Source of the DNA: an uncultured Bacilli bacterium
GTDB lineage: Bacteria; Bacillota_I; Bacilli_A; ML615J-28; CAG-313
Reading direction: 5' to 3'
NCBI GenBank assembly: GCA_934140285.1
Contig: CAKPBI010000006.1
Location: 7,042 to 71,041 of the forward strand
DNA length: 64,000 nucleotides
The first letter of the stretch is position 1. Each line of letters opens with the position of its first letter. Below are positions 1,575 to 59,417 of the stretch, piece after piece. Under the pieces are notes generated by a model, which was not told the DNA's origin, searched no databases, and was given only the letters and a program-made list of their open reading frames with translations. Position numbers and translations under genes: made by a program.

Positions 1575-1695
1575 TAATTAAATACAAAGACCTTCATTCA
1601 AAATATGAAGGCCTTTTGTTTTATAATATTATCTTATACGCTTTTATAAATGACAATTTAATAAAAATATGGTATACTATTTAATAGGTGATATT

Positions 1696-4320: not shown

Positions 4321-4328
4321 AGGATAAC

Positions 4329-30320: not shown

Positions 30321-30388
30321 ATAATTATTATAAAATTACTTCACTTTTTTAAAACTTTGTTACTATATTAGTGAAAGGAGGTATCATT

Positions 30389-31945
30389 ATGCAAAATAAA
30401 GAGCAATTAAAAGAATTAATAGCAAGTGAATATTTAAATAGATTCTTAACATTTTATATAAGCAGAACCTCTTCAATACAAGATGCGGAAGACTTATCAC
30501 AAAAGGCGGCCTGTGAGTGTTTAGATGCTTTAAGTCGTGTTGAAGAAATAAAGAATGTAAATGCTTATTTTTGGAGTATTGCTCATAATGTATATAAAAA
30601 CTACATTAATAGAAAAAATAATTATATTTTAGATGATGATTATTGTAAAATACAAATTATTGACACTTGCGATGATGAAAATAATGAAGAACAAACATTA
30701 CATAATGATATTAGAAAATCACTAAGTATCCTTTCAGGGTTATATCGTAAGATAATAGTACTTTACTATTATCATGAATTAAAAATCAAAGATATAGCCG
30801 AAAAACTTAATATTAGCCAAGACATGGTTAAGTATTATTTGTCAAATGGAAAGAAAAAGTTAAAGGAGATTTATGATATGAATAAGACAATCGGTGAAGT
30901 AAGCTTTAATCCTAAAGATTTTTCAATATACTATTCAGGAATTGATTTTACAAGCATAAACGTGTGGGAACTATTTAAAAGAAAATTACCATGTCAAATT
31001 GCCTTAATATGTTATGCTAAACCTAAATCAGTAACTGAAATTTCTAATGAAGTAGGTTGTAGTAGTTGTTACATTGAAGATGAAATTGCAATACTATTAA
31101 AAGCCGGAGTATTAATTGAAAAAGTAAAGAATAAATATCAAACAAATTTTTGCATTATCAGTAAAGAAGAACTTGATGTTATTGATACAATGTATAAAAA
31201 AATGTATGACGAATATGTAAAAGAAGTTGAAAAAGTTTTTAATGAACATTTTGAACAATTTAAACAAACAAATATTTATAATTATAAAGCTGAAATAGAT
31301 CAATACAAATGGATTTTTGTAGATAGAATCGCAGATATAGATAAAAGAAAGTTAGTTACTAAAGATTCAGATTATCCCAAAATTTTATCGTGTGGTGCAA
31401 GAGGATTAGTTTTTGGATTAGAAGCCAAAACTCCAAAAGGAGTATGTGGTCAAACCCCAACTTCATTAAATGATTATACCCTATGGGCAAGAGATTTATG
31501 GTTATCTAAAAACCATAGTTCCAATCAAGTAATCTTAAGAGATAAAGTAATAGCACAAACCGTCATTGATGTGTATAATGGTATAGTTGATAATAGTAAA
31601 GAAGAATTATATGCCTATTTAATTAAAAACAATATTTTAATTAAAGATAATGGAGTATTAAAAACGACTATTGCCTACTTAAATGAGGATTTTCAAAAAC
31701 TAATGGAAAACATCAATAATGATTTATACGTTAAATTAGAATCATCAACAAACAAAATTAAAGAATATTTAACAAAAATAATAACCAAATCAATTCCAAG
31801 TAATCTAAAAGAATATGTTAATGGATATGTTGTTATTTTAATGGAATTCTTTGCTGGTAACAAAATAATTCAAACTTTAATTGAAAATAATTTTTTAAAT
31901 GATAAAATAAAAAACATCCAAATTAGTTATTTTATCAATAAATAA
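30389..31945 (+). CDS. ECF-type sigma-70 family protein with ~350-aa C-terminal extension, paralog of 25588-27198
   Basis: Region 2 reads IQDAEDLSQKAACE...AYFWSIAHNVY. Region 4 reads YRKIIVLYYYHELKIKDIAEKLNISQDMVKYYLSNGKKKLKE. The RBS AAGGAGG precedes the ATG at 30389. The domain order matches the first sigma-like gene. Confidence 0.55.
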   Translation: MQNKEQLKELIASEYLNRFLTFYISRTSSIQDAEDLSQKAACECLDALSRVEEIKNVNAYFWSIAHNVYKNYINRKNNYILDDDYCKIQIIDTCDDENNEEQTLHNDIRKSLSILSGLYRKIIVLYYYHELKIKDIAEKLNISQDMVKYYLSNGKKKLKEIYDMNKTIGEVSFNPKDFSIYYSGIDFTSINVWELFKRKLPCQIALICYAKPKSVTEISNEVGCSSCYIEDEIAILLKAGVLIEKVKNKYQTNFCIISKEELDVIDTMYKKMYDEYVKEVEKVFNEHFEQFKQTNIYNYKAEIDQYKWIFVDRIADIDKRKLVTKDSDYPKILSCGARGLVFGLEAKTPKGVCGQTPTSLNDYTLWARDLWLSKNHSSNQVILRDKVIAQTVIDVYNGIVDNSKEELYAYLIKNNILIKDNGVLKTTIAYLNEDFQKLMENINNDLYVKLESSTNKIKEYLTKIITKSIPSNLKEYVNGYVVILMEFFAGNKIIQTLIENNFLNDKIKNIQISYFINK

Positions 31946-42174: not shown

Positions 42175-42327
42175 TTAAAATATGGTAATTTTTACATGTT
42201 CAACCTAAAAAATGATTTAACGGAAATTTCCTATTATAAAAAATGAAATACATTATTCGATAAAATTATATCAAATTAATTATTAAATTCTTGACTTTAA
42301 AGATTAAATATGCTATAATTATACTGC

Positions 42328-43416
42328 TTGAAAAAAATAAGCTCTAAAATTCGTGAAAGGAAGACATTTATGAAAAAAATTTTTAGAATTATGGCTAGCT
42401 TACTTGTTGTTTTCACACTAGCATTTGCTGTAAGTTCATGCAAGAAAAAAGAAAACAAAGAAGCTACTTATAAATTAGGTATGGGTGTTGTTGTTAGTAC
42501 TGCATCAAGCAAAACTAACGCTCCTCAAGTTGATGCAACTGTATCTTCAGTTGTTTTAAAAGATGGTAAAATTGTTGCATGCCGTATCGATGCAGTTCAA
42601 AACAAAGCTACAATCGCTGATGGCGTTTACACAGTTAAAAATCTTGAAACAAAAATGGAATTAGGCGATCGCTATGGCATGGCTCCTGCAAAAATCGATA
42701 ACGATGGTAATGGCGTTACAAAAGAATGGTATGACCAAGTTAAAGCATTTGAAGCATATGTTGTTGGTATGACTGCTGATGAAGTTAAGAACATGAAGAC
42801 TCAAGAAAAGAATGGTCACGTTATTTCTGCTGATCAAAAATTACTTGATGCTGGTTGTTCAATTCAAATTACTGATTTCATCGCTGCTACAGTTAAAGCT
42901 TGTAACGATGAACAAGGTCAAGAGTTTAAGACTGCTAAAGAATTTACACTTGGTGTTGCTGCTACATCTCATGTAGATGCTTCAAGTAAAAATGCTACTG
43001 CAGAAGCTGATGGCGCTATCAATATGTATTCTGATTTCGCTGCTACAGTTGTTGCTGAAGGCAAAATTCTTGCTTGCTTAAATGATGCAATTCAACCTAA
43101 ATTTGCATTCACTTTTGAAGGTGAACTTACTCCTTCTTTCCAAGACACTAAACGTTGCCTAAAAGAAAAATATGGTATGGCTCCTGTAAAAATCGATAAC
43201 GATGGTAATGGTGTTACAAAAGAATGGTTCGAACAATCTGCTGCATTCTCTGCATACGTTGTTGGTATGACTGCTGACGAAGTTAAGAATATGAAGACTC
43301 AAGAAAAGAATGGTCACGTTATTTCTGCTGATAAAGGCTTACTTGATGCTGGCTGCTCAATTCAAATTACTGACATCAAAGCAGTAGTTGCAAAAGCTGT
43401 TGCTAATGCTAGATAA
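42328..43416 (+). CDS. lipoprotein with two tandem ~125-aa FMN_bind-like domains (PplA-like), canonical flavinylation motif not evident
   Basis: The lipobox is AVSSC. Two internal repeats each contain GMAP(A/V)KIDNDGNGVTKEW and YVVGMTADEVKNMKTQEKNGHVISAD..LLDAGCSIQITD. The repeat ends align to the FMN_bind C-terminus (VDAVSGATVTS) but lack SGAT. Confidence 0.4.
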   Translation: MKKISSKIRERKTFMKKIFRIMASLLVVFTLAFAVSSCKKKENKEATYKLGMGVVVSTASSKTNAPQVDATVSSVVLKDGKIVACRIDAVQNKATIADGVYTVKNLETKMELGDRYGMAPAKIDNDGNGVTKEWYDQVKAFEAYVVGMTADEVKNMKTQEKNGHVISADQKLLDAGCSIQITDFIAATVKACNDEQGQEFKTAKEFTLGVAATSHVDASSKNATAEADGAINMYSDFAATVVAEGKILACLNDAIQPKFAFTFEGELTPSFQDTKRCLKEKYGMAPVKIDNDGNGVTKEWFEQSAAFSAYVVGMTADEVKNMKTQEKNGHVISADKGLLDAGCSIQITDIKAVVAKAVANAR

Positions 43417-43438
43417 TTAAATTATAAGGATTTTACAG

Positions 43439-44530
43439 ATGAATATGAATTTGACGAAGTTCAAAAGAATATTCTGTCTGGGCTTAATTTTAGGGCAACT
43501 TATCTTAATGTTGGGTTGCTCTAATTTTTTTCATAGACACGAAAAACCAAATGATAAAGTTTGGAATATAACATACTTTCAATATTTTGATACAGTGAGC
43601 AATATTTATAGCTATGCAGGAGACACGGAAGAAGAATTTTCCAAAAACTGTGATCTTGTATCAACTGAGTTACAAACTTATCACCAACTTTTTGATATTT
43701 ATCACGAGTATTCAGGTATTGTTAATCTTTGTACGATAAACAAGAACGCTGGTGGTGAACCTCAAAAGGTCGATGATCGCTTGATCAAATTTTTGAAATA
43801 TACAAAAGAATTATATGCTTTAACAAATGGAAAAATGAATGTCATGCTTGGAGCTGTCTTAAGACCTTGGCATGATGCAAGAACTAATGCATCAGATGAT
43901 CCACAAAATGCTAAAATTCCGACAATGGAAGTCTTAGAAGAAGCAGCTAAACATATTGATATTAACTTACTAGATATTGATGAAGCAAATAAAACTGTAA
44001 GAATTAAAGATCCAAAAGCATCAATTGATGTTGGTGCAGTTGGTAAGGGGTATGCGACTGAACAAGCCGCAAAAGTACTAGAACAAAAGGGATGCAAAAG
44101 TTATGTTCTTAATATTGGTGGAAACATCAGAATTGTAGGAACAAAATCAAACGGGGATGGTTGGACAACAGGAATCAAAGATCCAAATAATCCATATGGT
44201 GGATATGTAATGTACTTAAAAATTGCTGATACATCATGTGTTACATCAGGAGTTTATGAAAGATACTTTATGGTTAATGGGGTTAGATATCATCATATAA
44301 TTGATGAAAAAACATTAATGCCTGCTAATTATTTTATTTCTTTAACAGTTATTACAAAAGATAGTGGACTTGCAGATGCCTTATCTACAGCTCTATTTTG
44401 TATGACATATGAAGAAGGATTAGCTCTTGTAAATACGTTAGAAAACGTTGATGTTTTATGGATTTATAGTGATGGAACTCAAAAATATACTAAAGGAATA
44501 GTTCCTATTGATCCAAATAAAAATAAATAG
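43439..44530 (+). CDS. apbE: FAD:protein FMN transferase (ApbE family), lipoprotein
   Basis: The lipobox is LGC. DVGAVGKGYATEQAAKVL and the C-terminal motifs are ApbE signatures. Confidence 0.8.
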   Translation: MNMNLTKFKRIFCLGLILGQLILMLGCSNFFHRHEKPNDKVWNITYFQYFDTVSNIYSYAGDTEEEFSKNCDLVSTELQTYHQLFDIYHEYSGIVNLCTINKNAGGEPQKVDDRLIKFLKYTKELYALTNGKMNVMLGAVLRPWHDARTNASDDPQNAKIPTMEVLEEAAKHIDINLLDIDEANKTVRIKDPKASIDVGAVGKGYATEQAAKVLEQKGCKSYVLNIGGNIRIVGTKSNGDGWTTGIKDPNNPYGGYVMYLKIADTSCVTSGVYERYFMVNGVRYHHIIDEKTLMPANYFISLTVITKDSGLADALSTALFCMTYEEGLALVNTLENVDVLWIYSDGTQKYTKGIVPIDPNKNK

Positions 44531-44554
44531 TTAAATAAATTTTAGGAGGAAATA

Positions 44555-45916
44555 ATGGCTATTAGAAAAAATATTTCTTCATTACATTTACCACATAATA
44601 AGCATACTGCAGAATGTGAGCCAATTCGTATTCCAGTTCCTAGTGAAGTAATCCTTCCTATGGATATGCAATCTGGCGGAAATGCAGTACCTATCGTAAA
44701 TGTTGGAGATCATGTTTATGTAGGACAACTTATTGCAAGAGAAGATGGAAGATTCTCTTCTCCTGTACATGCTTCTGTTTCAGGTACAGTTACAGAAATT
44801 TCTTCACTTGAACGTGCTGGTGGAAAATCAGTACAAGCAATCCACATTGCAAGTGATGGCTTAATGGAAAAAGATCCAAATCTTAAAGTACCAGTTATTA
44901 ATTCAGCAGATGAATTCTTACAAGCAGTTCGTGAAAGCGGATGTGTAGGACTTGGTGGTGCTGCCTTCCCAACATGGGCTAAACTAAATGAACTTCGTAA
45001 TGGTGAATATACTGTTGATACAGTACTTGTAAATGCAGCTGAATGTGAACCATACATTACAAGTGACCATCGTATGATGCTAAGTCATCCTGATTTAATC
45101 GATAAAGGTATTGAATATTTAAGAACATACTTAAGTGAATATTTAAGTAATGCTAAATTCATGATTTGCATTGAAAAAAATAAACCAGATGCAATCGAAT
45201 TATTAAAAGAAACTTTCGCAAGCAAAGACTATGTTGAAGTTTATGAACTTGATCCAGTGTATCCACAAGGTGCAAAACAAGTTATGTTATATAATGCAAC
45301 TGGTCGTGTATCAATTGCTGGAAAGAGATTCCCTTATTTCCATGCTATAATCATTAACGTTTCTTCACTAGCAAAAATGGCAGAATACCTATCAACTGGT
45401 ATGCCACTTGTTGAACGTATTGTAACAGTTGATGGCCCTGCAGTACTAGAACCTAAAAACTTAATTGCTCCAATTGGAACAAGAATTAGTTATTTACTAG
45501 ATCAAACTGGTCTTTCTACTGAACCAGGTAAAATTGTAATTGGCGGTCCGATGAATGGTCATGCTGTATTATCAATTGATGATCCAATTGTAAAAGTATC
45601 TAACTGCGTTCTTGCATTTGATGAAAAACATAGTGTTTTACCTGATCCTACAGCTTGTATCCACTGTGGACGTTGTATTGATAAATGTCCTATCAATATT
45701 AATGTTCCTGCAGTAGATGTTGCCTTAAGAGAAGAGAATGAAGATGTACGTGCTGAAAAGTTAATCGCAACTGGTGTTCGTCAATGTGTTGACTGTGCAA
45801 GCTGTGCATATGTATGCCCTGCTCATCGTCATTTACTTGCAAGCAACCAAAAAGCTAAGAAATTCTTAAAAAACTATGAATATGAAAAAGCACATCAAGA
45901 AGGAGGAAACAAATAA
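44555..45916 (+). CDS. rnfC: Rnf electron transport complex subunit C
   Basis: It has two 4Fe-4S clusters, CIHCGRCIDKCP and CVDCASCAYVCP, and an NADH-binding GLGGAAFP motif. Confidence 0.85.
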   Translation: MAIRKNISSLHLPHNKHTAECEPIRIPVPSEVILPMDMQSGGNAVPIVNVGDHVYVGQLIAREDGRFSSPVHASVSGTVTEISSLERAGGKSVQAIHIASDGLMEKDPNLKVPVINSADEFLQAVRESGCVGLGGAAFPTWAKLNELRNGEYTVDTVLVNAAECEPYITSDHRMMLSHPDLIDKGIEYLRTYLSEYLSNAKFMICIEKNKPDAIELLKETFASKDYVEVYELDPVYPQGAKQVMLYNATGRVSIAGKRFPYFHAIIINVSSLAKMAEYLSTGMPLVERIVTVDGPAVLEPKNLIAPIGTRISYLLDQTGLSTEPGKIVIGGPMNGHAVLSIDDPIVKVSNCVLAFDEKHSVLPDPTACIHCGRCIDKCPININVPAVDVALREENEDVRAEKLIATGVRQCVDCASCAYVCPAHRHLLASNQKAKKFLKNYEYEKAHQEGGNK

Positions 45917-46887
45917 TGAATGATCTTAACGTTTCTGCTGCACCACACATTAATAGTGGTGTGTCAACTAGAAATATTATGCTAGATGTAATTATTGCTT
46001 TAATTCCTGCTTCAATTATGGGTATTATTTACTTTGGATGGAAAGCATTATTAATCATAGCATCATGTGTAGGAACAGCTGTTCTTGCAGAATTCTTATT
46101 TAATCTAATTACAAGAAGAAAACAAACAATCAGTGATTTAAGTGCTGTAGTTACAGGTTTAATTCTTGCGTTAAACTTAAGTGTTAATGTTGGTTTATTT
46201 GAATGTATTATTGGTTCTTTATTCGCAATAATCATTGTTAAATGTTTATTTGGTGGAATTGGTAAAAACATTGCTAACCCAGCAATCGCTGCTCGTGTAT
46301 TTATGCTATTAACATTTGGTTCTGTTGCTTTAGCTCCACATCTTGCAAATAACGCAATAACAAAAGGAATTGCTAATGCTCTTGATGTTGAACTAACTGC
46401 AGGTGCAACACCACTATCTTTCTTAAATAATGGTGCTGGTACTGAAGGTACTCCATCTTTACTTACTTTATTAGTAGGTCTTCATGGTGGTACAATTGGT
46501 GAAACTTGTGCAATAGCATTACTTATTGGATTTATCTATTTAATGGTTAGAAAAGTAATCAAATGGTACATTCCTGTAACATTTGTAGCAACTGTATTTG
46601 TTTTATACTTATTAACTTCTAAATTCAATGCAGCATATGCATTATCACATGTACTTGCTGGTGGCTTACTATTTGGTGCAATCTTTATGGCAACTGATTA
46701 TGTAACTAGTCCAATCAGCAATCTAGGTAAAGTTATTTTTGGTGTTGGTTGTGGTTTAATTACTTTCTTAATTAGAAAGTATGGAGCATTCCCAGAAGGT
46801 GTATCAATTTCAATTTTATGTATGAATTTACTTGTACCTCTAATTGAAAAAATCACTACTCCAAAAACACTTGGTGGAATTAGATAA
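45916..46887 (+). CDS. rnfD: Rnf complex subunit D
   Basis: It is a polytopic membrane protein. The NqrB/RnfD family motif region around SGVST...GG is present. It lies in the rnf gene order. Confidence 0.8.
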   Translation: MNDLNVSAAPHINSGVSTRNIMLDVIIALIPASIMGIIYFGWKALLIIASCVGTAVLAEFLFNLITRRKQTISDLSAVVTGLILALNLSVNVGLFECIIGSLFAIIIVKCLFGGIGKNIANPAIAARVFMLLTFGSVALAPHLANNAITKGIANALDVELTAGATPLSFLNNGAGTEGTPSLLTLLVGLHGGTIGETCAIALLIGFIYLMVRKVIKWYIPVTFVATVFVLYLLTSKFNAAYALSHVLAGGLLFGAIFMATDYVTSPISNLGKVIFGVGCGLITFLIRKYGAFPEGVSISILCMNLLVPLIEKITTPKTLGGIR

Positions 46888-46905
46888 GGAATAGGAGGAA
46901 AAAAT

Positions 46906-48168
46906 ATGAAAAAAGAAAATTTACTTACAGCATTATTTATTACTCTTATTGTCATAGTATTTGGTGCCTTAGCATTTGCGTTAAACCTTGTCACTGGCCC
47001 AATTATTGAAAAAAATAAACAACAAGGTGAACTTTCATCTTTGAAAGAAGTTATGCCTGATGCAGAAAACTTTGAATTATTAGAATCACTAAAAGATGTT
47101 CCTTCAACAGTTACTGCTATTTATAAAGAAACATCTGGTAAAGGTTATGTACTTCGTTTCTCAACTACATCTATGTATTCCGAATCTCCACTCGTATTTA
47201 CTCTTGGTGTAACAACTGATGGTAAAATCTCAGGTGTAAAGGTAAATGAATATCATGAATCACTTGATTTTAAAGATTATCCACTTACATTTATTGGAAA
47301 AGATTCAGCATTAACTGGTGTAACCATTCATGCTGGTGTAACATTCTCATCAACTGCATTTAAAAACGCAGTAGAAGAAGGTCTAAAATGCCTAATTGAT
47401 AATGACCTTATCAAAGAAGGGGTTAAGACTGATGATCAAATTTTACTTGAATTAATTCCAACTGTTCATGGTGGAATGATAAGTGCGGGTAACTTAAGAG
47501 CTGAAGAAATTGAAGCAAGTGGAAATATTGTTAAAGGCTATAAAGCATTAAGCGATGCAGGTTATGCTTTCATTATGAAAGAAGCTGACAAGATGTATTT
47601 AGTAATATTTAATAATCTTGGTACACATGCCATTTATGATACTGAAGGTAACGATGTAACTGCTGATCATGAAACTCTTGCAACTGAAGCAAGTGCTAAA
47701 GTTACAATAAATAATAGTGTTGATAAACTTATTAAGAAAGTTGAAAGAATTGAAGGAGCAACAGATATTAAGAAAATTAATATTGAAATATACAATACTG
47801 TTGTTGCAGCTGTAAGCTTTAACGTAGACGGTAAAGTTCATTACGGATTCTATACAAGAAACTATGGATATCGTAACAATGTTATGGAAATCTTTGTAAT
47901 TCTTGATGAAAATGGAGCTATCGTTAGCACATCTGCTACTGAATGCTTCTTTGATATTGAATACTATAATGGTGTTGATCCTAACTTTACTGAAAAAAAT
48001 TATTACAATGGTTTAGTGGGATTAAAGGATAGTACATTTGATGGATCACAAACTATAATCGGTGGTGCAACATTAACATCAAATGGATTTAAAGAATCAT
48101 TAAATGATGCATTTAAAGCATTTAAAACTATATCTTCAAACGTAGTGGAGGGAACTGAAAATGAATAA
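46906..48168 (+). CDS. rnfG: Rnf complex subunit G, double-length with two FMN-binding domains
   Basis: It has an N-terminal TM segment. The first domain ends HAGVTFSSTAFKNAV and the second IGGATLTSNGFKESLNDAFKAF, which is a canonical SGAT-type flavinylation site. At 420 aa it is about twice the typical 200 aa. Confidence 0.7.
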   Translation: MKKENLLTALFITLIVIVFGALAFALNLVTGPIIEKNKQQGELSSLKEVMPDAENFELLESLKDVPSTVTAIYKETSGKGYVLRFSTTSMYSESPLVFTLGVTTDGKISGVKVNEYHESLDFKDYPLTFIGKDSALTGVTIHAGVTFSSTAFKNAVEEGLKCLIDNDLIKEGVKTDDQILLELIPTVHGGMISAGNLRAEEIEASGNIVKGYKALSDAGYAFIMKEADKMYLVIFNNLGTHAIYDTEGNDVTADHETLATEASAKVTINNSVDKLIKKVERIEGATDIKKINIEIYNTVVAAVSFNVDGKVHYGFYTRNYGYRNNVMEIFVILDENGAIVSTSATECFFDIEYYNGVDPNFTEKNYYNGLVGLKDSTFDGSQTIIGGATLTSNGFKESLNDAFKAFKTISSNVVEGTENE

Positions 48169-48766
48169 ACTTAAAAAATTACTTTTAAGAGGTACACCTT
48201 CATTCTTACTACCACTTGGTGCTGGATTTGTAATGGCGTCTAGTGGTGATGTACGTGCTGCACTTGGAATGGGTGTCGCTGTTACTGTCATTTTAGTATT
48301 AAGCTCAATCTTAATCTGTGCATTAAAGAAAGTAATTCCTGCAAAAGGTAAAGTACCTGTATATATTTTAATAGTTACTGGTTTTACTACTCTTGTTTGT
48401 ATGTTAATGCAAGCTTTCGTTCCAACTGTTGTTGATATGTTAGGTGTTCATCTTGCATGCCTTGCAGTAAGCGCTGTAAATTTCCGTGAAGCAGATGAAA
48501 TCGCAAGTGTTGAAGGAGAAGGAAAATCAATTCTTTCGGCTTTAATTACTGGTGCATTCTTCCTTGTAATTATGTGTGTGTGTGCATGCTTCCGTGAAAT
48601 TCTTGGTAATGCAACATTCTTTGGAAAAGAACTTAAATTCCTTGCTAATTATAAAATTAGCACTCTTGTTGGAACTCTAGGCGGATATATTGTTCTTGCA
48701 ATTATCCTTGCTGTTATTCGCCATATTGGTGAAAAAATTGAAACTAAAGAGGAGGTAAATGAATAA
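48161..48766 (+). CDS. rnfE: Rnf complex subunit E
   Basis: LGAGFVMASSGDVRAALGMGVAVTVILV matches the RnfE/NqrD family. Its position after rnfG fits. Confidence 0.8.
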   Translation: MNKLKKLLLRGTPSFLLPLGAGFVMASSGDVRAALGMGVAVTVILVLSSILICALKKVIPAKGKVPVYILIVTGFTTLVCMLMQAFVPTVVDMLGVHLACLAVSAVNFREADEIASVEGEGKSILSALITGAFFLVIMCVCACFREILGNATFFGKELKFLANYKISTLVGTLGGYIVLAIILAVIRHIGEKIETKEEVNE

Positions 48767-49317
48767 TGGATCTTAAGTTAATTTTAGGTATTATTTTTGC
48801 TGGTCTTTTATCAAACAACTATGCAATCCTACATTTCCTTGGAACTGGCGCAGTTATTGAAAATAATCGTACAATTAAAAGATCATTATTTATTGGCTTA
48901 GGTACTCTTTTAGTAATGGTACTCACAACATTAATTACTTGGCCAATTAATAAGTATTTACTTGCTCATGCTCAATATTTACAAACATTAGTATTTGTGT
49001 TAGTAGTTTTAGGTATTGTTGAACTTATCCATTTAGTTGCAAAAGGTAAATTAGAAGGATATTGTCAAGTTGACTTCCTAACTTTCGCAATCAATGGGGC
49101 AGTACTTGGTTTATGTATCAATGGTGCTAGCCTAGGATTTGGTGAAGCATGTCTAACTGCTGCTCAAGTAGGTGTAGGTTTAACTTTAACAATGATTATT
49201 TTTAGTACTTTACATGAACGTCTAGATGAAACAAGTGTACCAAAAGCATTCCGTGGTCTTCCAATTAGTTTATTAGTTGCAGGCCTTATGGCACTTGCTT
49301 TCCTTGCTTGTAAATGA
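48766..49317 (+). CDS. rnfA: Rnf complex subunit A
   Basis: SNNYAILHFLGTGAVIEN matches the RnfA/NqrE family N-terminus. Confidence 0.8.
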   Translation: MDLKLILGIIFAGLLSNNYAILHFLGTGAVIENNRTIKRSLFIGLGTLLVMVLTTLITWPINKYLLAHAQYLQTLVFVLVVLGIVELIHLVAKGKLEGYCQVDFLTFAINGAVLGLCINGASLGFGEACLTAAQVGVGLTLTMIIFSTLHERLDETSVPKAFRGLPISLLVAGLMALAFLACK

Positions 49318-49658
49318 GAAAACGTGATTTTCTAATTATTGCTGGAATATTAGTTTTTGCGGCTATCTTATTTTTAGTAGTCAATCTAACAAAAAAAGAT
49401 GGTGGTGGTGTTATCGTTAAAGTCGATGGCGTAGAAGTAGCTCGTTATTCCTTCTCTGATGAGGGAACCTACGAACTAAATGGAGGAACTAATATTTTGT
49501 GTATAAAAGATAACCAAGCTTGGTTATTAGACGCAAATTGTAAAGATCATATTTGTGTAAAACAAGGTAAAATTAGTAAGGAAGGAGAAACAATTACTTG
49601 CTTACCCAATAAACTAACAGTCACAGTTTATGGTGTTGATAATATTAGTGAATTGTAA
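49314..49658 (+). CDS. NusG domain II (DUF1312) family protein
   Basis: It has an N-terminal TM segment. VKVDGVEV...LLDANCKDHICVKQGKISKEGETITCLPNKLTVTVYG matches the NusG_II pattern. The start overlaps rnfA. Confidence 0.55.
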   Translation: MRKRDFLIIAGILVFAAILFLVVNLTKKDGGGVIVKVDGVEVARYSFSDEGTYELNGGTNILCIKDNQAWLLDANCKDHICVKQGKISKEGETITCLPNKLTVTVYGVDNISEL

Positions 49659-49667
49659 ATAAGTAAA

Positions 49668-50165
49668 ATGAAAGCTGTTAAAAAGATAACTTACTTAAGT
49701 ATATGTATTTCCTTAGCTCTAATTCTTTCTTATGTTGAAAGTTTGCTGCCCACCTTTCCCCTACTTGCGGGAGTAAAACTTGGACTTCCCAATATAGTAA
49801 TAATATTTCTACTATATAAGTCAGGATGGAAAGATGCAGTTATCGTCAGTATATTAAGAGTATTTCTAGTAGCACTACTTTTTGGTAATGCATATAGTCT
49901 TGCTTATAGTATTGCTGGTGCAATCTTAAGTTTAACAGCAATGATTCTTTTAAAACAATTAACCAAACTATCAACAATCACCGTAAGTGTAATTGGTGGT
50001 GTATTCCATAACATTGGTCAAATACTAGTTGCTTGTTTTGTAACAACAACAGTTGAAATAGCTTACTACTTACCAGTTTTAATAATTACGGGAACAGTAG
50101 CTGGTGTTATCATTGGTTTGATCGGTGGTAACCTTGCTAAAAAGTTTCAAAATATTGAATTATAA
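49668..50165 (+). CDS. Gx transporter family membrane protein (heptaprenyl diphosphate synthase component I-like, PF07456)
   Basis: This 165-aa polytopic protein has the LLP/GVKLGLPNI motif region. This family typically co-occurs with NusG_II and ApbE. Confidence 0.5.
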   Translation: MKAVKKITYLSICISLALILSYVESLLPTFPLLAGVKLGLPNIVIIFLLYKSGWKDAVIVSILRVFLVALLFGNAYSLAYSIAGAILSLTAMILLKQLTKLSTITVSVIGGVFHNIGQILVACFVTTTVEIAYYLPVLIITGTVAGVIIGLIGGNLAKKFQNIEL

Positions 50166-50287
50166 GGGTTATAGAGATTATCTCTATAATCCTTTTTTCT
50201 TTCAAAAACAAATAATTTTTACATATAAGTTGAAAAAAATGAAAAAATGATGTATAATAAAAAAGATTGATATTGCTGGAGATGAAT

Positions 50288-51175
50288 ATGAAAAGAAGGA
50301 ACATTTTAGTTTTAGTAAATGAAGCTAAAGATGAAAAACTTGTTGTCACAAATGAAGTAATAAGTTTTTTAGAAAAAAACAATTGTAATGTATTTCTTGA
50401 AGATGAACTAATCGCAAAAATTAATAGAGGCAGTAAAATTCAAGATAATACGGAAATTAATTTTGCTCTTGTACTAGGTGGAGATGGAACATTGCTTAAT
50501 AAGTTACACCGATATGTAGATAAAGATTATGCATACTTTGGTATTAATTTAGGAAGAGTAGGATGCTTAACCGAGGCCACAAGAACAAACTATCCGGAAA
50601 AATTAACAAGTATATTTAATGATAACTATTTTGTAGAAAATAGAAATACCCTTGAATATGTTGTTAAGAATGGTGAAAATGACATTCATAAAGGAATTGC
50701 CTTTAATGAAGTAAGCATTGAAAGAGGAAAACTTTTCAAAATGTTACTTATTAATATGTATGTTAATGGTAATAACAAAACCTCATTTTATGCGGATGGA
50801 GTCATTGTTGCTACCTCAACCGGATCAAGTGCATTTAGTCTTTCTAGTGGAGGACCTTTACTTCTACCTAATGCTAAAAATTTTGTGGTTACGCCACTTT
50901 GTCCCCAACTTAGAAATATTACATCTTTAGTAGTAAATGATACAGATATAGTTTCTATTGATATCACTGATCCTAATCAACGTCAATCTTACCATGAACA
51001 CAAACCAATAGTTGTAATTGATGGAAGAACAATGATTGAGATTGATGAAAATAGTAAACTAGTTATCCAAAAAAGTCCTAAATATTTAAAAATATTAAAG
51101 GTAAATGGTCAAGGCTCATTATTTGAACCAACATTTAAAGTAGCGATGTCAAATCAAAACTTATTCAATGAATGA
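50288..51175 (+). CDS. nadK: NAD kinase
   Basis: ALVLGGDGTLL is the GGDGT motif. The RBS GGAG lies 7 nt before the ATG at 50288. The gene ends in a TGA stop. Confidence 0.8.
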   Translation: MKRRNILVLVNEAKDEKLVVTNEVISFLEKNNCNVFLEDELIAKINRGSKIQDNTEINFALVLGGDGTLLNKLHRYVDKDYAYFGINLGRVGCLTEATRTNYPEKLTSIFNDNYFVENRNTLEYVVKNGENDIHKGIAFNEVSIERGKLFKMLLINMYVNGNNKTSFYADGVIVATSTGSSAFSLSSGGPLLLPNAKNFVVTPLCPQLRNITSLVVNDTDIVSIDITDPNQRQSYHEHKPIVVIDGRTMIEIDENSKLVIQKSPKYLKILKVNGQGSLFEPTFKVAMSNQNLFNE

Positions 51176-51199
51176 AAAAAATGAAAAGGGAGTTAAAAA

Positions 51200-52057
51200 A
51201 TGGACAAGTTTAAATTAAATCAAATTGTTTTAAAAGAAGAACTAAACCCAACTGTAACAAAAATGGAAGTTTATTCTCCTTTTATTGCTAAGAAAGCTGA
51301 ACCAGGAGAATTTATTATCTTAAGAGTTGATGAGTCTGGTGAAAGAATTCCTCTAACTGTTGCTGGTTACGACCGTGAAAAAGGAACAGTTACAATTATT
51401 TTCCAAATAGTTGGTGGAACAACTATGTTATTAAACAACCTAAATGAAGGCGATTGCATTCATGACTTTGTAGGTCCACTTGGAAAAGCAACTGAAACTG
51501 AAGGATTAAAGAAAGTTGCAGTTGTTGGTGGTGGTGTTGGTTGTGCTATCGCATTACCTGTCGCTAAAAAATTACATGACATAGGTTGTGAAGTTCACTC
51601 AGTTATTGGATTTAGAAATAAAGATTTAGTTATCTTAGAAAAAGAATTCACTGAAGCAAGTGACAAACTATGCTTAATGACAGATGATGGTAGTTATGGA
51701 ACTAAAGGTTTAGTAACTAACGCATTAGAAGAATTAATTAAAGCAGGAAATGAATATGATGAAGTAATCGCTATTGGACCACTTATCATGATGAAGTTTG
51801 TTACATTATTAACAAAGAAATATAACATCAAAACAGTTGTAAGTATGAACCCAATTATGATCGATGGTACTGGTATGTGTGGATGCTGTCGTTTAACAGT
51901 AGGTGGCAAAACTAAATTTGCCTGTGTTGATGGTCCTGATTTCGACGCATTTGAAGTCGACTTTGATGAAGCTATCTCAAGATCTAGAAGTTATACAGAT
52001 TTTGAAGCAAGAGCAAGAGAAAAATCTTGTAATTTATTGAAAAAAGAGGTTAAATAA
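51200..52057 (+). CDS. PyrK-like FAD/[2Fe-2S] oxidoreductase subunit (NfnA / sulfide dehydrogenase SudB-like)
   Basis: It has a ferredoxin-NADP reductase-type fold and a C-terminal cysteine cluster CGCCRLTVGGKTKFACVDGP. It pairs with the gltD-like gene. Confidence 0.7.
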   Translation: MDKFKLNQIVLKEELNPTVTKMEVYSPFIAKKAEPGEFIILRVDESGERIPLTVAGYDREKGTVTIIFQIVGGTTMLLNNLNEGDCIHDFVGPLGKATETEGLKKVAVVGGGVGCAIALPVAKKLHDIGCEVHSVIGFRNKDLVILEKEFTEASDKLCLMTDDGSYGTKGLVTNALEELIKAGNEYDEVIAIGPLIMMKFVTLLTKKYNIKTVVSMNPIMIDGTGMCGCCRLTVGGKTKFACVDGPDFDAFEVDFDEAISRSRSYTDFEARAREKSCNLLKKEVK

Positions 52058-52059
52058 TT

Positions 52060-53448
52060 ATGCCTAATATGTCACTTAAAAAGAACCCAATGCCATCTTT
52101 AGATGCAAACGTTAGAAATAAAAACTTTGAAGAAGTTGCTTTAGGTTATACTGAAGAAATGGCAATTGATGAAGCAGAAAGATGCTTACATTGTAAAAAT
52201 AAACCATGTGTTAATGGTTGCCCTGTTGGAATCAACATTCCTGATTTCATTGCTCAAGTTAAAGTTAAAAACTATGAAGAAGCTTATAATATCATTTACA
52301 AGAGTAGTGCACTACCTGCTGTTTGTGGTCGTGTATGTCCTCAAGAAAGCCAATGTGAAGGTAAATGTGTAAGAGGTATTAAAGGCGAACCAGTTGGAAT
52401 CGGTAGACTTGAAAGATTCGTTGCTGACTATCATAATGCTCACCAAACTGGTGAAGTAGTAAGACCTGCATCAAATGGTCATAAAGTAGCAGTAATTGGT
52501 TCAGGTCCTTCTGGATTAACATGTGCTGGTAAACTTGCCCTTGAAGGCTATGAAGTTACAATTTTTGAAGCATTACATATGGCTGGTGGAGTTCTAGTTT
52601 ATGGTATTCCTGAATTTCGTCTTCCAAAATCAATCGTTCAAAAAGAAATCGACAACTTAATCGCTTTAGGTGTTAAAGTTGAAACTAACATGGTTGTTGG
52701 TAAAGTATTATCAATTGATGAATTAATCGATGAATATAAGTTTGAAGCTATCTTCATTGGTAGCGGTGCTGGACTTCCCAAGTTTATGAATATCCCTGGT
52801 GAAAACTTAAAAGGTGTATTCAGTGCTAATGAAATCTTAACACGTGTTAACTTAATGAAAGCTTACCTTCCTGATTCAACTACTCCAGTAAAACAAAGCA
52901 AGAATGTTGCTGTTGTAGGTGGTGGTAACGTTGCAATGGATGCTGCTAGATGTGCTAAACGTTTAGGTGCTGAAAATGTTTATATCGTTTATCGTCGTGG
53001 ATTAGATGAACTTCCAGCAAGAAGAGAAGAAGTTGAACATGCTATGGAAGAAGGTATCATCTTCAAAGTATTAACTAACCCAATTGAATTAATCGGTGAT
53101 GAAACGGGAACTGTTTCACAAATGAAATGTGTTGAAATGGAACTTGGAGAAGCTGATGCATCTGGTCGTAGAAAACCAGTAGTTAAAGCTGATTCTGAAT
53201 TTGTAATGGATGTTGACTGTGTTATTATGGCACTTGGTACATCTCCTAACCCTCTAATCAAGAACACTACTAAAGGTCTTGATACTGAAAAATGGGGTGG
53301 AATCATTGCTAATGAAGATGGATTAACTTCAAGAGAAGGTATCTACGCTGGCGGTGACGCTGTAACAGGTGCTGCTACAGTAATCCTTGCTATGGGTGCT
53401 GGTAAAAAAGCTGCTGAAGCTATCGACAATTACCTAAAGAATAAATAA
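52060..53448 (+). CDS. glutamate synthase small-chain-like NADPH oxidoreductase (NfnB / SudA-like)
   Basis: Two Fe-S cysteine motifs (CLHCKNKPC, CGRVCPQESQCEGKC) and two Rossmann sites (GSGPSG, VVGGGNVAMD) are present. A terminator lies at 53461-53492. Confidence 0.8.
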   Translation: MPNMSLKKNPMPSLDANVRNKNFEEVALGYTEEMAIDEAERCLHCKNKPCVNGCPVGINIPDFIAQVKVKNYEEAYNIIYKSSALPAVCGRVCPQESQCEGKCVRGIKGEPVGIGRLERFVADYHNAHQTGEVVRPASNGHKVAVIGSGPSGLTCAGKLALEGYEVTIFEALHMAGGVLVYGIPEFRLPKSIVQKEIDNLIALGVKVETNMVVGKVLSIDELIDEYKFEAIFIGSGAGLPKFMNIPGENLKGVFSANEILTRVNLMKAYLPDSTTPVKQSKNVAVVGGGNVAMDAARCAKRLGAENVYIVYRRGLDELPARREEVEHAMEEGIIFKVLTNPIELIGDETGTVSQMKCVEMELGEADASGRRKPVVKADSEFVMDVDCVIMALGTSPNPLIKNTTKGLDTEKWGGIIANEDGLTSREGIYAGGDAVTGAATVILAMGAGKKAAEAIDNYLKNK

Positions 53449-53684
53449 GTCTAAATATCACAAGCATATCAGTTAATGATATGCTTGTTTTTACATATTG
53501 AAAAAGTTAGCTAGTACTTACTAATTGAGTTTTCTTTATTTCAGTGCCATAATATAATAATATAAGAGGTATAATAATAAAAAATAAAAACTTAAACTTT
53601 AATAGAACAAGTTCTTTTTTACTTGCTTTTTATCGTTTAAAAAGATATAATTAAAAAAACAACAACAATTGAAGGAGAGAAAAA

Positions 53685-56637: not shown

Positions 56638-57261
56638 ATGGATAAAAAGAAAATTAATGTTAAAAAGATAATTAAAATCACTATTTTATTGATAATACTT
56701 ATAACAATTCCTACAACAATAATGTGTAGATCTAGTTGTATGTATTCAGAAAAAGGTCATTATAGAAGAATTCAAAAAAGAATAGAAGAAAGATTTATTG
56801 AAACTGGTGTACATAAAGAATATGAACTATACCCATTATATGATGAAAATGATAAATTAAAATATTTTGTAGTTGATTTTCCAACTAATTATCATATTAT
56901 AAGGATAAATAAATATGATTTAGGTTGCCTAGGCGTATCAATGTATACACTATCTATAAATAATCCATGGCAAAGATATGTCTTAGAAAATGGAGAAAAA
57001 GTATATGAAAAAGATAAAGATGGTAACGATATATTCTATAAACAAAGTCCATATAAAATAGCAGGAATAAAAGATGAAAAAAAATATTTAATTGAGGTTA
57101 GCCAAGGCTCAAGTTCAAGTTATGTTCCAGCAGTAAAAAGAGGAGACAAGTACTTAAATCTAATCTCAATGAAAGAAGAAGAAATAGTATTGAAATCAAA
57201 TGAACAAATAAATGAAACATGGACTATAAGTTGTATCTATAAGCCATATTTTGATTTATAA
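56638..57261 (+). CDS. paralog 1 of a 4-member tandem family: small N-terminally anchored secreted/lipo-protein, unknown function
   Basis: The signal or TM anchor ILLIILITIPTTIMC-RSSC is followed by the conserved core HYRRIQKRIEERFIETG...NPWQRYVLENGEK...VPAVKRGDKYLNLISMKEEEI. The first ~300 nt are identical to copy 3. Confidence 0.6.
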   Translation: MDKKKINVKKIIKITILLIILITIPTTIMCRSSCMYSEKGHYRRIQKRIEERFIETGVHKEYELYPLYDENDKLKYFVVDFPTNYHIIRINKYDLGCLGVSMYTLSINNPWQRYVLENGEKVYEKDKDGNDIFYKQSPYKIAGIKDEKKYLIEVSQGSSSSYVPAVKRGDKYLNLISMKEEEIVLKSNEQINETWTISCIYKPYFDL

Positions 57262-57290
57262 TAGTTATAAATAAAGTAAAGGAAATAATT

Positions 57291-57917
57291 ATGGAAAAAA
57301 AGAAAATTAATGTTAAAAAGATAATAAGAATAACTATTTTATTGATAATACTCATAACTATTCCTACAACAATAATGTGTAGGTCTAGTTGTATGTATTC
57401 AGAAAAAGGCCATTATAGAAGAATTCAAAAAAGAATAGAAGAAAGATTTATTACTACAGGATTGTATGAAGAATATGAACTATACCCATTATATGATGAA
57501 GAAGATAAACTAAGATATTTTGTTGTTGAATTTTCTCCTACTGACTATCGTGTAATAAGCATAAATAAATATGATTTTGGTTGCTTAGGTGCATCAATGT
57601 ACTCACTCTTTGAAACTAATCCATGGCAAAGATATGTCTTAGATAATGGAGAAAAGATATATGAAAAAGATAAAGATGGTAATGATATATTCTATAAACA
57701 AAGTCCATATAAAATAGCAGGAATAAAAAATGAAAAAAGATATTTAATTGAGGTTAAACAAGATTCTAATCTATTTTATGTTCCAGCAGTAAAAAGAGGA
57801 GATAAGTACTTAAATCTAATATCAATGAAAGAAGAAGAAATAATATTAGAATCAAAGAAAGAGATAAATGAATCATTGGATATCTACTTTTTTATCAAAC
57901 CAAGATTTGATTTATAA
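57291..57917 (+). CDS. paralog 2 of the tandem family
   Basis: It is about 85% identical to copy 1. It lies only 29 nt after copy 1, so it is probably co-transcribed. Confidence 0.6.
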   Translation: MEKKKINVKKIIRITILLIILITIPTTIMCRSSCMYSEKGHYRRIQKRIEERFITTGLYEEYELYPLYDEEDKLRYFVVEFSPTDYRVISINKYDFGCLGASMYSLFETNPWQRYVLDNGEKIYEKDKDGNDIFYKQSPYKIAGIKNEKRYLIEVKQDSNLFYVPAVKRGDKYLNLISMKEEEIILESKKEINESLDIYFFIKPRFDL

Positions 57918-58007
57918 TAAGTATAAAAAAACATATAAAACATTTTTATTTAAACGAGAAAAAACAAACAATTAATTGTTTGCATGAATAAAAAGGGAGT
58001 GTAAAAA

Positions 58008-58631
58008 ATGGAAAAAAAGAAAATTAATATTAAAAAGATAATTAAAATCACTATTTTATTGATAATACTTATAACAATTCCTACAACAATAATGTGTAGA
58101 TCTAGTTGTATGTATTCAGAAAAAGGTCATTATAGAAGAATTCAAAAAAGAATAGAAGAAAGATTTATTGAAACTGGTGTACATAAAGAATATGAACTAT
58201 ACCCATTATATGATGAAAATGATAAATTAAAATATTTTGTAGTTGATTTTCCAACTAATTATCATATTATAAGGATAAATAAATATGATTTAGGTTGCCT
58301 AGGCGTATCAATGTATACACTTTTTGAAACTGATCCATGGCAAAGATATGTCTTAGAAAATGGAGAAAAAGTATGTGAAAAAGATAAAGATGGTAATGAT
58401 ATATTCTATAATCAAAGCCCATATAAAGTAGCAGGAATAAAAGATGAAAAAAGATATTTGATGTGTGTTCAACAAGATTCTAATTTTAATTATGTTCCAG
58501 CAGTAAAAAGAGGAGATAAGTACTTAAATTTAATCTCAATGAAAGAAGAAGAAATAATATTAGAATCAAAGGAAGAGATAAATGAATCATGGGATATAAG
58601 AGATTATATTTGTTCACAATTTGATTTGTAA
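58008..58631 (+). CDS. paralog 3 of the tandem family
   Basis: The N-terminal half is identical to copy 1 and the C-terminal half resembles copy 2. An 18-bp palindrome CAAACAATTAATTGTTTG (57965-57982) lies upstream. Confidence 0.6.
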   Translation: MEKKKINIKKIIKITILLIILITIPTTIMCRSSCMYSEKGHYRRIQKRIEERFIETGVHKEYELYPLYDENDKLKYFVVDFPTNYHIIRINKYDLGCLGVSMYTLFETDPWQRYVLENGEKVCEKDKDGNDIFYNQSPYKVAGIKDEKRYLMCVQQDSNFNYVPAVKRGDKYLNLISMKEEEIILESKEEINESWDIRDYICSQFDL

Positions 58632-58719
58632 TAAGTATAAAAAACATATAAAAAACTTTTATTTAAATGATAAAAGCAAACAATTAATTGTTTGCATGAA
58701 TAAAAAAGGAGTGTAAAAA

Positions 58720-59349
58720 ATGGAAAAAAAGAAAATTAAAAAGATAATTAGAATAACCAGTTTATTAATAGTGATATTTGTATTGTTAGCGATACCTACT
58801 TTAAAAATGTGTTATCCACGTTGTATATATTCAGAAAAAGCTCATTATAGAAGAATTCAAAAAAGAATAGAAGAAAGATTTATTGAAACTGGTGTACATA
58901 AAGAATATGAGCTATACCCATTATATGATGAGAATGATCAATTAAAATATTTTGTTGTTGATTTTCCAACTAATTATCATATTATAAATATAAATTCATT
59001 TGATTATAGTTGTATTTCTGGTACATCATTATATTCACTATCTATAACTAATCCATGGCAAAGATATGTCTTAGAAAATGGAGAAAAAGTATATGAAAAA
59101 GATGAAGATGGTAATGATATATTTTATAATCAAAGTCCATATAAAGTTGCAGGAATAAAAGATGAAAAAAGATATTTAATTAAAATTAGACAAGGATCTA
59201 ACTCAGATTTTGTTCCTGCAGTAAAAAGAGGAGATAAGTATTTAAATCTAATATCAATGAAAGAAGAAGAAATAGTACTAAAATCAAATGAAGAAGTAAA
59301 TGAAACATTCTATACATTTTATTCACCAAAGCCACAGTTTAATTTATAA
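58720..59349 (+). CDS. paralog 4 of the tandem family (most divergent N-terminus)
   Basis: The anchor differs (MCYPRC), the C-terminal tail resembles copy 1 and the mid-region resembles copy 3. A 20-bp palindrome GCAAACAATTAATTGTTTGC (58676-58695) lies upstream. Confidence 0.6.
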   Translation: MEKKKIKKIIRITSLLIVIFVLLAIPTLKMCYPRCIYSEKAHYRRIQKRIEERFIETGVHKEYELYPLYDENDQLKYFVVDFPTNYHIININSFDYSCISGTSLYSLSITNPWQRYVLENGEKVYEKDEDGNDIFYNQSPYKVAGIKDEKRYLIKIRQGSNSDFVPAVKRGDKYLNLISMKEEEIVLKSNEEVNETFYTFYSPKPQFNL

Positions 59350-59417
59350 AAATATATGATAATTATTATATAAAAATGAATTTATATAAATGAAAATAAA
59401 AATTTAAGGAGTACAAT

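Follow-up and report, generated by a model that had tools for sequence, protein, structure and literature searches.

The closest described systems to the locus reported here are the Rnf complex, the Listeria locus for flavin-based extracellular electron transfer (EET), and a two-subunit Nqr/Rnf-like system. In the Rnf complex (RnfABCDGE; 7ZC6, 9ERI, and 8AHX), four cysteines, one per inner half-helix, hold an intramembrane [2Fe-2S] cluster that accepts electrons from RnfB and passes them to RnfG, and the cofactors of the membrane subunits have been called strictly conserved (2025 review, PMC12174285). The Listeria EET locus comprises Ndh2, EetA, EetB, FmnA, FmnB, PplA, and DmkA/B. In the two-subunit system of Actinobacteria and the Candidate Phyla Radiation (CPR), an RnfD-like domain without a flavinylation site is fused to an NqrF-type NAD-binding domain (PF00175) and accompanied by one RnfG-like subunit (Meheust 2021, Huang 2024); a one-way Nqr/Rnf-like precedent is already published (PMC8238504, PMC11334425). 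Here we analysed 64,000 nucleotides (nt) of an uncultured Bacilli bacterium (assembly GCA_934140285.1, contig CAKPBI010000006.1, positions 7,042 to 71,041), called the window below, which has a G+C content of ~30% and carries a nine-gene, Rnf-like operon that lacks rnfB and begins with the gene of a tandem-domain lipoprotein.

The nine genes lay head to tail on the plus strand from 42370 to 50165 (Table 1), in the order tandem-domain lipoprotein, ApbE, RnfC, RnfD, double-length RnfG, RnfE, RnfA, NusG_II protein (EetA), and PF07456 protein (EetB). Overlaps were observed for rnfC/rnfD (1 nt), rnfG/rnfE (8 nt), rnfE/rnfA (1 nt), and rnfA/eetA (4 nt). With these overlaps, the close spacing elsewhere, and a promoter-like and a terminator-like site on the two flanks, the nine genes form one operon; the promoter-like site was the top-scoring site of the region. 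An earlier reading, made from the sequence alone, had listed the same nine genes, and all of them were recovered on this strand with strong profile matches, apart from the lipoprotein, which had no Pfam match. The lipoprotein start proposed in the sequence-only reading (TTG 42328) was wrong; it lies 9 nt past the −10 box of the best promoter-like site. The true start is ATG 42370, behind the ribosome-binding site GAAAGGAAG, and gives the 348-residue protein found in the database.

Compared with the Rnf complex, the locus shared homologues of RnfC, D, G, E, and A with the clostridial gene arrangement (C-D-G-E-A), the cofactor motifs of RnfC, the RnfD flavinylation site, an expected ApbE-dependent flavinylation, and eetAB genes alongside, as in many Clostridia. 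It differed in having no RnfB, in the replacement of the four RnfA/RnfE [2Fe-2S] cysteines, in an RnfG of doubled length that carries two flavinylation motifs (three in two other loci), in the lipoprotein and apbE genes that lead the operon, and in its coexistence with a canonical Rnf in some genomes. With the Listeria locus it shared a lipoprotein ApbE (FmnB in Listeria), EetA/EetB, a surface lipoprotein with two flavin-carrier domains (putative here), and the same proposed job of moving electrons from reduced nicotinamide adenine dinucleotide (NADH) outward. Its membrane step would however be RnfC-D-G instead of Ndh2 plus demethylmenaquinone, and its lipoprotein was missed by the Pfam FMN_bind model and carried AGC[S/T] instead of [S/T]GA[S/T]. 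The operon contained no gene of quinone biosynthesis, and neither its nine genes nor the neighbours that were annotated encoded Ndh2, DmkA/B, or FmnA; annotation further out in the window was non-exhaustive. Compared with the two-subunit system, RnfC provides the NADH site, RnfD keeps its flavinylation site, and RnfA/RnfE are retained.

With moderate confidence, we read the operon as an Rnf paralogue that was rebuilt for one-way export of electrons from NADH. RnfC would oxidise NADH, and the electrons would cross the membrane via RnfD with its covalent flavin mononucleotide (FMN) and reach an outward-facing RnfG with two covalent FMN sites rather than one. RnfG would hand them to the surface lipoprotein with its two divergent, putative FMN-binding domains, from which they would leave to an extracellular or cell-wall acceptor. 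The lipoprotein ApbE would attach the flavins outside the membrane, to RnfD, to RnfG, and probably to the lipoprotein, while EetA and EetB would export the flavin adenine dinucleotide (FAD) that ApbE needs. RnfA/RnfE were probably retained as a scaffold or ion path, and the likely role of the whole would be NAD+ regeneration in fermentative gut anaerobes. Electron export rather than ion pumping is probable because the ferredoxin half appears to be lost and extra surface flavin carriers appear to be gained. The sequence-only reading had recognised a locus of the flavin-based EET type; our analysis supports this and refines it by the EetA/EetB assignment, the loss of the cluster ligands, and the doubling of RnfG.

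The ferredoxin branch appears to be gone, as judged from both the missing RnfB and the missing [2Fe-2S] cysteine ligands in RnfA/RnfE. The absence of rnfB from the window had been noticed earlier and held up: rnfC was the sole open reading frame (ORF) with CxxCxxCxxxC motifs, and a tblastn search of the window with a bona fide RnfB, taken from a canonical operon beside a related cassette (locus L040, see below), matched only the Fe-S domain of RnfC. RnfB was likewise not found beside the variant cassettes of ~60 species. The sequence-only reading had named a pair of observations as telling against it, an adjacent rnfB together with no FMN_bind similarity of the lipoprotein; the two were not found together, and a terminator-like hairpin closes the operon.

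RnfA was aligned to 9ERI_A, 7ZC6_A, and 8AHX_A, and RnfE to 9ERI_E and 7ZC6_E; 7XK3 was also compared. In RnfA, the canonical LGICP was changed to LGTGA (48838-48852) and TNCAVLG to INGAVLG (INGAV 49090-49104), with glycine in place of both cysteines. In RnfE, LGMCP was changed to LGAGF (48215-48229) and VNCII to VSAVN (48467-48481), so the four ligand positions hold Gly, Gly, Gly, and Ala. The canonical RnfA cysteines were missing at both sites in 65 of 65 locus orthologues and in 120 of 120 database homologues. For RnfE, the first was lost in 59 of 66 orthologues and the second in all 66. Across the orthologous loci, RnfB and the cluster that accepts its electrons are therefore missing together.

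The rnfCDGEA set was complete, as the sequence-only reading had claimed, but its members were unequally conserved. RnfC and RnfD scored above their NCBIfam cut-offs and RnfG, RnfE, and RnfA far below (Table 1); by these scores the NADH-side subunits are canonical and the other three strongly divergent. Orthologues of the divergent subunits are named ‘hypothetical’ or ‘Rnf-Nqr domain containing protein’ at NCBI. RnfC contained two CxxCxxCxxxC [4Fe-4S] motifs (CIHCGRCIDKC and CVDCASCAYVC) and a Complex1_51K match (2e-32). RnfD (323 amino acids, aa) was a stand-alone protein with PF03116 only and scored 271 bits to 7ZC6_D. Its AGATPL aligned with TTATPL of 7ZC6_D and 9ERI_D, and the flavinylated Thr was kept. 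The ApbE protein was a lipoprotein as previously noted, with a PF02424 match and a lipobox.

RnfG had an N-terminal membrane helix followed by two FMN_bind domains with the motifs AGVT (47332-47343, Thr146) and GGAT (48061-48072, Thr389). The two domains matched each other with an hhalign probability of 97%, and the G-x-T core was kept in both across 61 orthologues, in which the motif was [S/A]G[A/V/S/T/C]T in domain 1 and x-x-A-T in domain 2. In two other loci, L050 (8777-10696) and L081 (8084-9985), RnfG was extended to 633-639 aa by duplication of the first FMN_bind-plus-linker module and showed three flavinylation motifs (AGST, AGST, and ATAT).

Fusion proteins joined RnfG to the lipoprotein family. 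P0132 and P0211 were lipoproteins whose N-terminal part aligned collinearly with RnfG residues 42-412, the ectodomain (E = 1e-12 to 1e-13), and whose C-terminal part consisted of the tandem lipoprotein domains. FMN_bind was also present in 4 of 35 further long family members and was the commonest fusion partner; another member, P0143, carried a Redoxin/AhpC-TSA domain. Because natural fusions join them, the RnfG ectodomain and the lipoprotein probably act in series.

The last two genes of the operon, EetA and EetB, are the published FAD-export pair and are already known. In Listeria, FmnB, an extracytosolic homologue of ApbE, depends on EetB (PF07456) for its FAD; the eetB gene lies together with eetA in 3,328 genomes, with apbE in 2,169, and with Rnf genes in 572 Clostridia genomes, and PF07009 is labelled EetA in Data Set S1 of the same work (Rivera-Lugo et al. 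2023, PMC9973259). The sequence-only reading had placed a NusG-II and a Gx-transporter gene where rnfB would normally stand. Both genes are indeed there (PF07009 and PF07456), yet they form a flavin-supply module and therefore are not stand-ins for rnfB. A role of the NusG_II protein as a transcription factor was ruled out, since it is the membrane protein EetA.

The lipoprotein has the same sequence as MDY4051954.1, which is annotated ‘hypothetical protein’ in a metagenome-assembled genome (MAG) of a Bacilli bacterium. Its two internal repeats, reported earlier with a unit of ~125 aa, were confirmed in number but measured ~153-166 aa; they aligned over 153 and 161 aa with 57% mutual identity (E = 9e-54). 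Within the gene, a 208-nt direct repeat (42673-42880 and 43171-43378) was 88% identical at a spacing of 498 nt. The two domains were almost identical in their C-terminal halves and had diverged in their N-terminal halves, a pattern that suggests gene conversion. The protein had no meaningful match in Pfam, NCBIfam, or, by phmmer, PDB, and none to PF04205 at E <= 1. The profile search gave a family of 1544 clusters (50% identity), of which 491 had E-values under 1e-30; its members mostly have two domain copies and some three or four. Among the 120 best homologues, PF04205 was present in none (precomputed domain column), and the named ones were all annotated ‘hypothetical protein’.

Each repeat conserved GKIVxCRID-QNK, K-ELGD-YGM, a DNDGNG loop, EW-EQ-AF, and LL-AGC[S/T][IM]QI. 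The DNDGNG loop (DNNGDG in relatives) resembled an EF-hand/dockerin-type calcium-binding loop and lay within an insertion that is absent from compact FMN-binding domains. The string DAGCSIQITD was present in both repeats, as the sequence-only reading had observed. Across the family the motif read AGCT in 187 instances, AGCS in 145, and otherwise in five, giving AGC[S/T] in 332 of 337, with Cys as its most conserved residue.

The lipoprotein domains are predicted to adopt the FMN_bind fold. The AlphaFold2 model of the full protein had a predicted local distance difference test (pLDDT) score of 92.8 and a predicted template modelling (pTM) score of 0.88, domain 1 alone had a pLDDT of 91.7, and the top fold matches of the domain were three FMN-binding domains. 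Foldseek of the full model against PDB gave noise only, with template modelling (TM) scores of ~0.1. The family profile matched one PDB entry, 2KZX, weakly (E = 0.11) and placed a-G-c-s on S-G-A-T. Against a small 2KZX-like alignment, hhalign gave the same register (E = 3.7e-4, probability 36%); this alignment was built from a 67-aa fragment of 2KZX whose search gave three proteins, too few for a bridging profile. With the two FMN_bind domains of the operon’s own RnfG, hhalign probabilities were 6% and 0.5%, which is not significant. The FMN_bind likeness claimed in the sequence-only reading therefore stands by fold and by the weak 2KZX match, but not by the Pfam profile. 2KZX (C. thermocellum A3DHT5) and 3O6U (C. 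perfringens CPE2226) are single compact FMN-bind1 domains of ~120 aa, 2KZX with a canonical SGAT, whereas the window domain has insertions, the DNDGNG loop, and Cys at position −1.

When L-L-D-A-G-C-[S/T] was set against D-x-x-[S/T]-G-A-[S/T], the Gly and the terminal Ser/Thr were in register with SGAT of 2KZX. Since the profile and hhalign alignments agree in register, the Ser/Thr after the invariant Cys probably occupies the canonical FMN-attachment position. The alignment of its Ser/Thr with the flavinylated Thr makes AGC[S/T] more likely a variant of the (S/T)GAT motif than, as first proposed, a replacement for it. Cys at −1 (AGCT) was also observed in the RnfG domain 1 motif of two orthologues, and in tolerance data from other ApbE enzymes an Ala-to-Val change at −1 leaves ~50% flavinylation in one tested protein. 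Genuine RnfG motifs with Cys at −1 and this tolerance elsewhere make flavinylation of the lipoprotein plausible, and it is probably flavinylated on the Ser/Thr of AGC[S/T].

A scan with one genome per species detected the lipoprotein in 193 genomes. The carriers were gut MAGs of Oscillospiraceae, Christensenellaceae, other Clostridia, and Bacilli (Coprobacillus CAG:698, Anaeroplasmatales), with Neglectibacter caecimuris (L023) as the one cultured species. Gene order was counted in 80 loci of these genomes. The full order lipoprotein, ApbE, RnfC, D, G, E, A, EetA, EetB was found in 55, a prefix of it ended by the contig end in 21, and a different order in four. Searching from RnfA rather than from the lipoprotein recovered the same cassette. 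Among the exceptions in order, L045 (9920-18310) had the lipoprotein, ApbE, and a second, 480-aa paralogue, with no rnf genes within 10 kb. In another, L051 (4741-12075, Candidatus Pelethenecus), the lipoprotein gene neighboured a Cys-containing rnf operon that also had apbE and eetAB and encoded an RnfD of 655 aa.

Two Oscillospiraceae/Clostridia MAGs had a canonical operon divergently adjoining the cassette. In L040 it was rnfCDGEAB (17-5283, minus strand), with RnfA/RnfE scoring 211-215 bits on Rnf-Nqr, an RnfG of 236 aa, and an RnfB with PF04060 and Fer4. In L014 it was rnfCDGEA (1-about 5000, minus strand) and ran off the locus end before rnfB would be visible. The L040 genome has both systems, because a canonical operon with confirmed rnfB adjoins the variant cassette. 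Variant subunits were 55-75% identical between Bacilli and Clostridia and 29-44% identical to the canonical copy of the same genome. As the identity across classes exceeds that to the same-genome copy, the variants constitute a distinct orthologous group, and the cassette was probably exchanged horizontally.

Several observations weigh against the reading of the operon as a one-way exporter. The Pfam FMN_bind model misses the lipoprotein, and the lipoprotein motif has no Asp at −6 and has Cys in place of Ala at −1. The first RnfE cysteine was kept in 7 of 66 orthologues. RnfA has the variant-specific Cys100 (GYCQ, 49057-49068) in 91% and Cys117 (GLCI, 49108-49119) in 85% of orthologues, and RnfE has CVCAC (48575-48589), with one column conserved in 85%; these cysteines could form an alternative metal site or have a structural role. 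RnfA and RnfE are themselves retained and conserved, for which a pure RnfC-D-G path does not account. No terminal reductase was conserved in the cassette neighbourhood, and an RnfB could be encoded in trans elsewhere in the MAG, of which 64 kb are visible. That the electrons would flow out of the cell is a direction we infer.

The alternative that survives best concerns the lipoprotein. It could be a degenerate FMN_bind relative without flavin that acts in thiol or persulfide redox chemistry through its invariant Cys, or as a Ca2+- or substrate-binding surface protein, while ApbE serves only RnfD and RnfG. The missing Pfam match, the deviation from D-x-x-[S/T]-G-A-[S/T], the near-invariant AGC[S/T] with Cys as its most conserved residue, the Redoxin/AhpC-TSA fusion, and the EF-hand-like loop in every repeat are in line with this. 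We nevertheless regard it as unlikely. A Ser/Thr is always retained at the position aligned with the flavinylated Thr, genuine FMN_bind motifs of RnfG can likewise have Cys at −1, and the Ala-to-Val result shows that −1 can vary with about half of the flavinylation kept. An apbE gene always follows the lipoprotein gene, even where rnf genes are missing (L045), and a thiol role would be compatible with a combined flavin and thiol centre within the export model.

A less probable alternative involves the neighbouring NfnAB-like pair (PRK06222 396 bits, TIGR01316 578 bits). The pair would replace RnfB, and electrons from reduced nicotinamide adenine dinucleotide phosphate (NADPH) or ferredoxin would enter RnfA/RnfE through an alternative metal site made of the variant cysteines, giving an ion-coupled membrane NADPH:NAD+ or extracellular oxidoreductase. 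In 17 of the 55 complete loci, an Nfn-like pair lay upstream or downstream of the cassette at a distance of up to 10 kb. In L088 (10578-12855, metagenomic contig) the NfnAB-like genes follow rnfA directly, after 26 nt, at the place usually held by eetA/eetB, and in the Bacilli group an NAD kinase stands between the cassette and the pair. The conserved non-canonical cysteines of RnfA and RnfE also point this way. Nearby NfnAB-like genes and NAD kinase fit a role in pyridine-nucleotide balance as well as feeding this alternative, which is improbable in our judgement: the adjacency is missing in two thirds of the loci, the pair in the window has its own promoter-like (50230-50258) and terminator-like (53460-53488) sites, two or three conserved cysteines are too few for a canonical cluster, and the lipoprotein would be left without a role. 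Nfn-type proteins are soluble and are not known to dock to RnfA/RnfE, which also counts against it.

An ordinary ion-translocating ferredoxin:NAD+ oxidoreductase, with rnfB elsewhere in the genome and the lipoprotein as an unrelated accessory, is slightly more improbable still. The intact, co-transcribed genes of all five subunits RnfC, D, G, E, and A, a view limited to 64 kb of the genome, and the position of the L051 lipoprotein next to a Cys-containing rnf operon would all be in line with it. It would have to explain why the four cysteine ligands that receive RnfB electrons are missing in the orthologues, why rnfB is near no variant cassette in ~60 species, why a canonical operon adjoins the cassette in L040 (rnfCDGEAB) and in L014 (rnfCDGEA, cut by the locus end), and why RnfG, E, and A fall far under their family cut-offs. 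A decaying, non-functional rnf duplicate, to which the lost RnfB and cofactor ligands and the low scores of RnfG, E, and A could be ascribed, is hardly credible and was discarded as effectively refuted by the conservation of the cassette, since all 55 complete loci, from different species, have every gene intact, orthologues are 55-75% identical across bacterial classes, the gained features (second RnfG FMN domain, lipoprotein) are conserved, and the lipoprotein family extends to 1544 clusters.

Several parts of the proposed electron exporter are already known, namely the Rnf subunits, ApbE, EetA/EetB beside Rnf, probably the lipoprotein domain, and the idea of a one-way Nqr/Rnf-like system. 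The lipoprotein, compared by description only, fits ‘FMN-bind2’ (NTW96865.1, Erysipelotrichaceae bacterium; WP_312031774.1), a domain of ~160 aa that occurs in 2, 4, or 6 copies as a paired pseudo-symmetric unit, is not recognised by InterPro, and is reported from Erysipelotrichaceae and mollicute-like Bacilli; it came from BLAST searches, not from Pfam (Huang et al. 2024, mSystems). Judged by this published description, the lipoprotein domains are probably FMN-bind2; the FMN-bind2 paper makes no mention of an AGC[S/T] motif or of a tie to an RnfB-less Rnf. In the open-access literature, no description was found of an RnfCDGEA without RnfB and cluster ligands, with a double-FMN RnfG, behind a tandem AGC[S/T] lipoprotein. 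The loss of the RnfA/RnfE cluster ligands, the two RnfG flavinylation motifs, and the whole combination with the AGC[S/T] lipoprotein thus appear to be new.

Genomes with Rnf are usually interpreted as capable of ferredoxin-dependent energy conservation. The present cassette will probably be called Rnf by automated pipelines because RnfC and RnfD pass their family cut-offs. If the proposed export is true, metabolic reconstructions over-count Rnf-type energy conservation in the carriers and miss a quinone-independent disposal of NADH electrons outside the cell. Because Meheust et al. took RnfB as the criterion for an Rnf cluster, cassettes of this type would not have been counted as Rnf there. 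The cassette would also be a natural experiment on RnfA/RnfE without [2Fe-2S] and bears on the disputed Na+ translocation site in Rnf/Nqr, while AGC[S/T] bears on how far the ApbE recognition motif can drift and is cheap to test.

A more specific, joint version of the export model combines several of these elements, and we offer it as doubtful in its entirety. The operon would be a respiratory-type machine not recognised before, an NADH-driven export wire with up to five covalent flavins (one in RnfD, two in RnfG, and two in the lipoprotein) in quinone-poor gut anaerobes. The terminal AGC[S/T] would be an ApbE site of a new kind, whose invariant Cys, adjacent to the flavinylated residue, would give a flavin-thiol centre for the reduction of a disulfide, persulfide, or oxidant outside the cell, and the cluster-free RnfA/RnfE would serve as an ion path.

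Table 1. Positions of the operon, its putative expression signals, and the neighbouring operon in the window.
Feature	Position	Strand	Details
Promoter-like site	42291-42319	+	TTGACT, 17-nt spacer, extended −10 TGcTATAAT; 11/12 hexamer matches plus TG; consensus match only
Lipoprotein precursor	42370-43416	+	348 aa; lipobox VSSC (Cys24); two predicted FMN_bind-like domains of ~155 aa each
Lipoprotein domain 1	42457-42915	+	DNDGNG loop 42697-42714; AGCS 42850-42861
Lipoprotein domain 2	42931-43413	+	DNDGNG loop 43195-43212; AGCS 43348-43359
ApbE-family FAD:protein FMN transferase	43439-44530	+	lipobox MLGC (Cys27); PF02424, E = 2.6e-66
RnfC, NADH- and FMN-binding subunit	44555-45916	+	TIGR01945 360 bits (cut-off 246); Complex1_51K, RnfC_N
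RnfD membrane subunit	45916-46887	+	TIGR01946 292 bits (cut-off 207); flavinylation site AGATPL 46399-46416
Variant RnfG	46906-48168	+	420 aa; two FMN_bind stretches; TIGR01947 33 bits (cut-off 102)
Variant RnfE	48161-48766	+	PF02508 E = 1e-22; TIGR01948 98 bits (cut-off 213)
Variant RnfA	48766-49317	+	PF02508 E = 4e-20; TIGR01943 97 bits (cut-off 229)
EetA homologue (NusG_II)	49314-49658	+	single membrane helix; PF07009 E = 1e-28
EetB homologue (‘Gx transporter’)	49668-50165	+	energy-coupling factor (ECF)-S-like subunit for FAD export; PF07456 E = 3e-37
Terminator-like hairpin	50164-50194	+	14-bp stem then T-run, closes the operon; consensus match only
Separate neighbour operon	50267-53448	+	NAD kinase 50267-51175; NfnA/SudB-like 51200-52057; NfnB/GltD-like 52060-53448

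Upstream of the cassettes, a thioredoxin, a thioredoxin reductase, a Crp/Fnr regulator, and a choloylglycine-hydrolase-like gene recurred and were considered as clues to the acceptor. They were discarded as lineage synteny, because they recurred only in a single lineage of close relatives (84-100% identity). In GC-rich genomes, many of the apparent neighbour clusters turned out to be antisense ORFs.

Elsewhere in the window, the stretch 56638-63395 began with four tandem paralogous ORFs of ~207 aa (56638-59349), two of which were scanned and gave no Pfam match, followed by a 1325-aa BspA-type leucine-rich-repeat (LRR_5) surface protein. Two proteins of ~530 aa (25588-27198 and 30371-31945) matched nothing in Pfam except a sigma-70 region 4 at the N terminus. 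Both genes lay where the window is richest in AT (22-36 kb, 24-27% G+C), and the proteins may be sigma factors with long C-terminal extensions.

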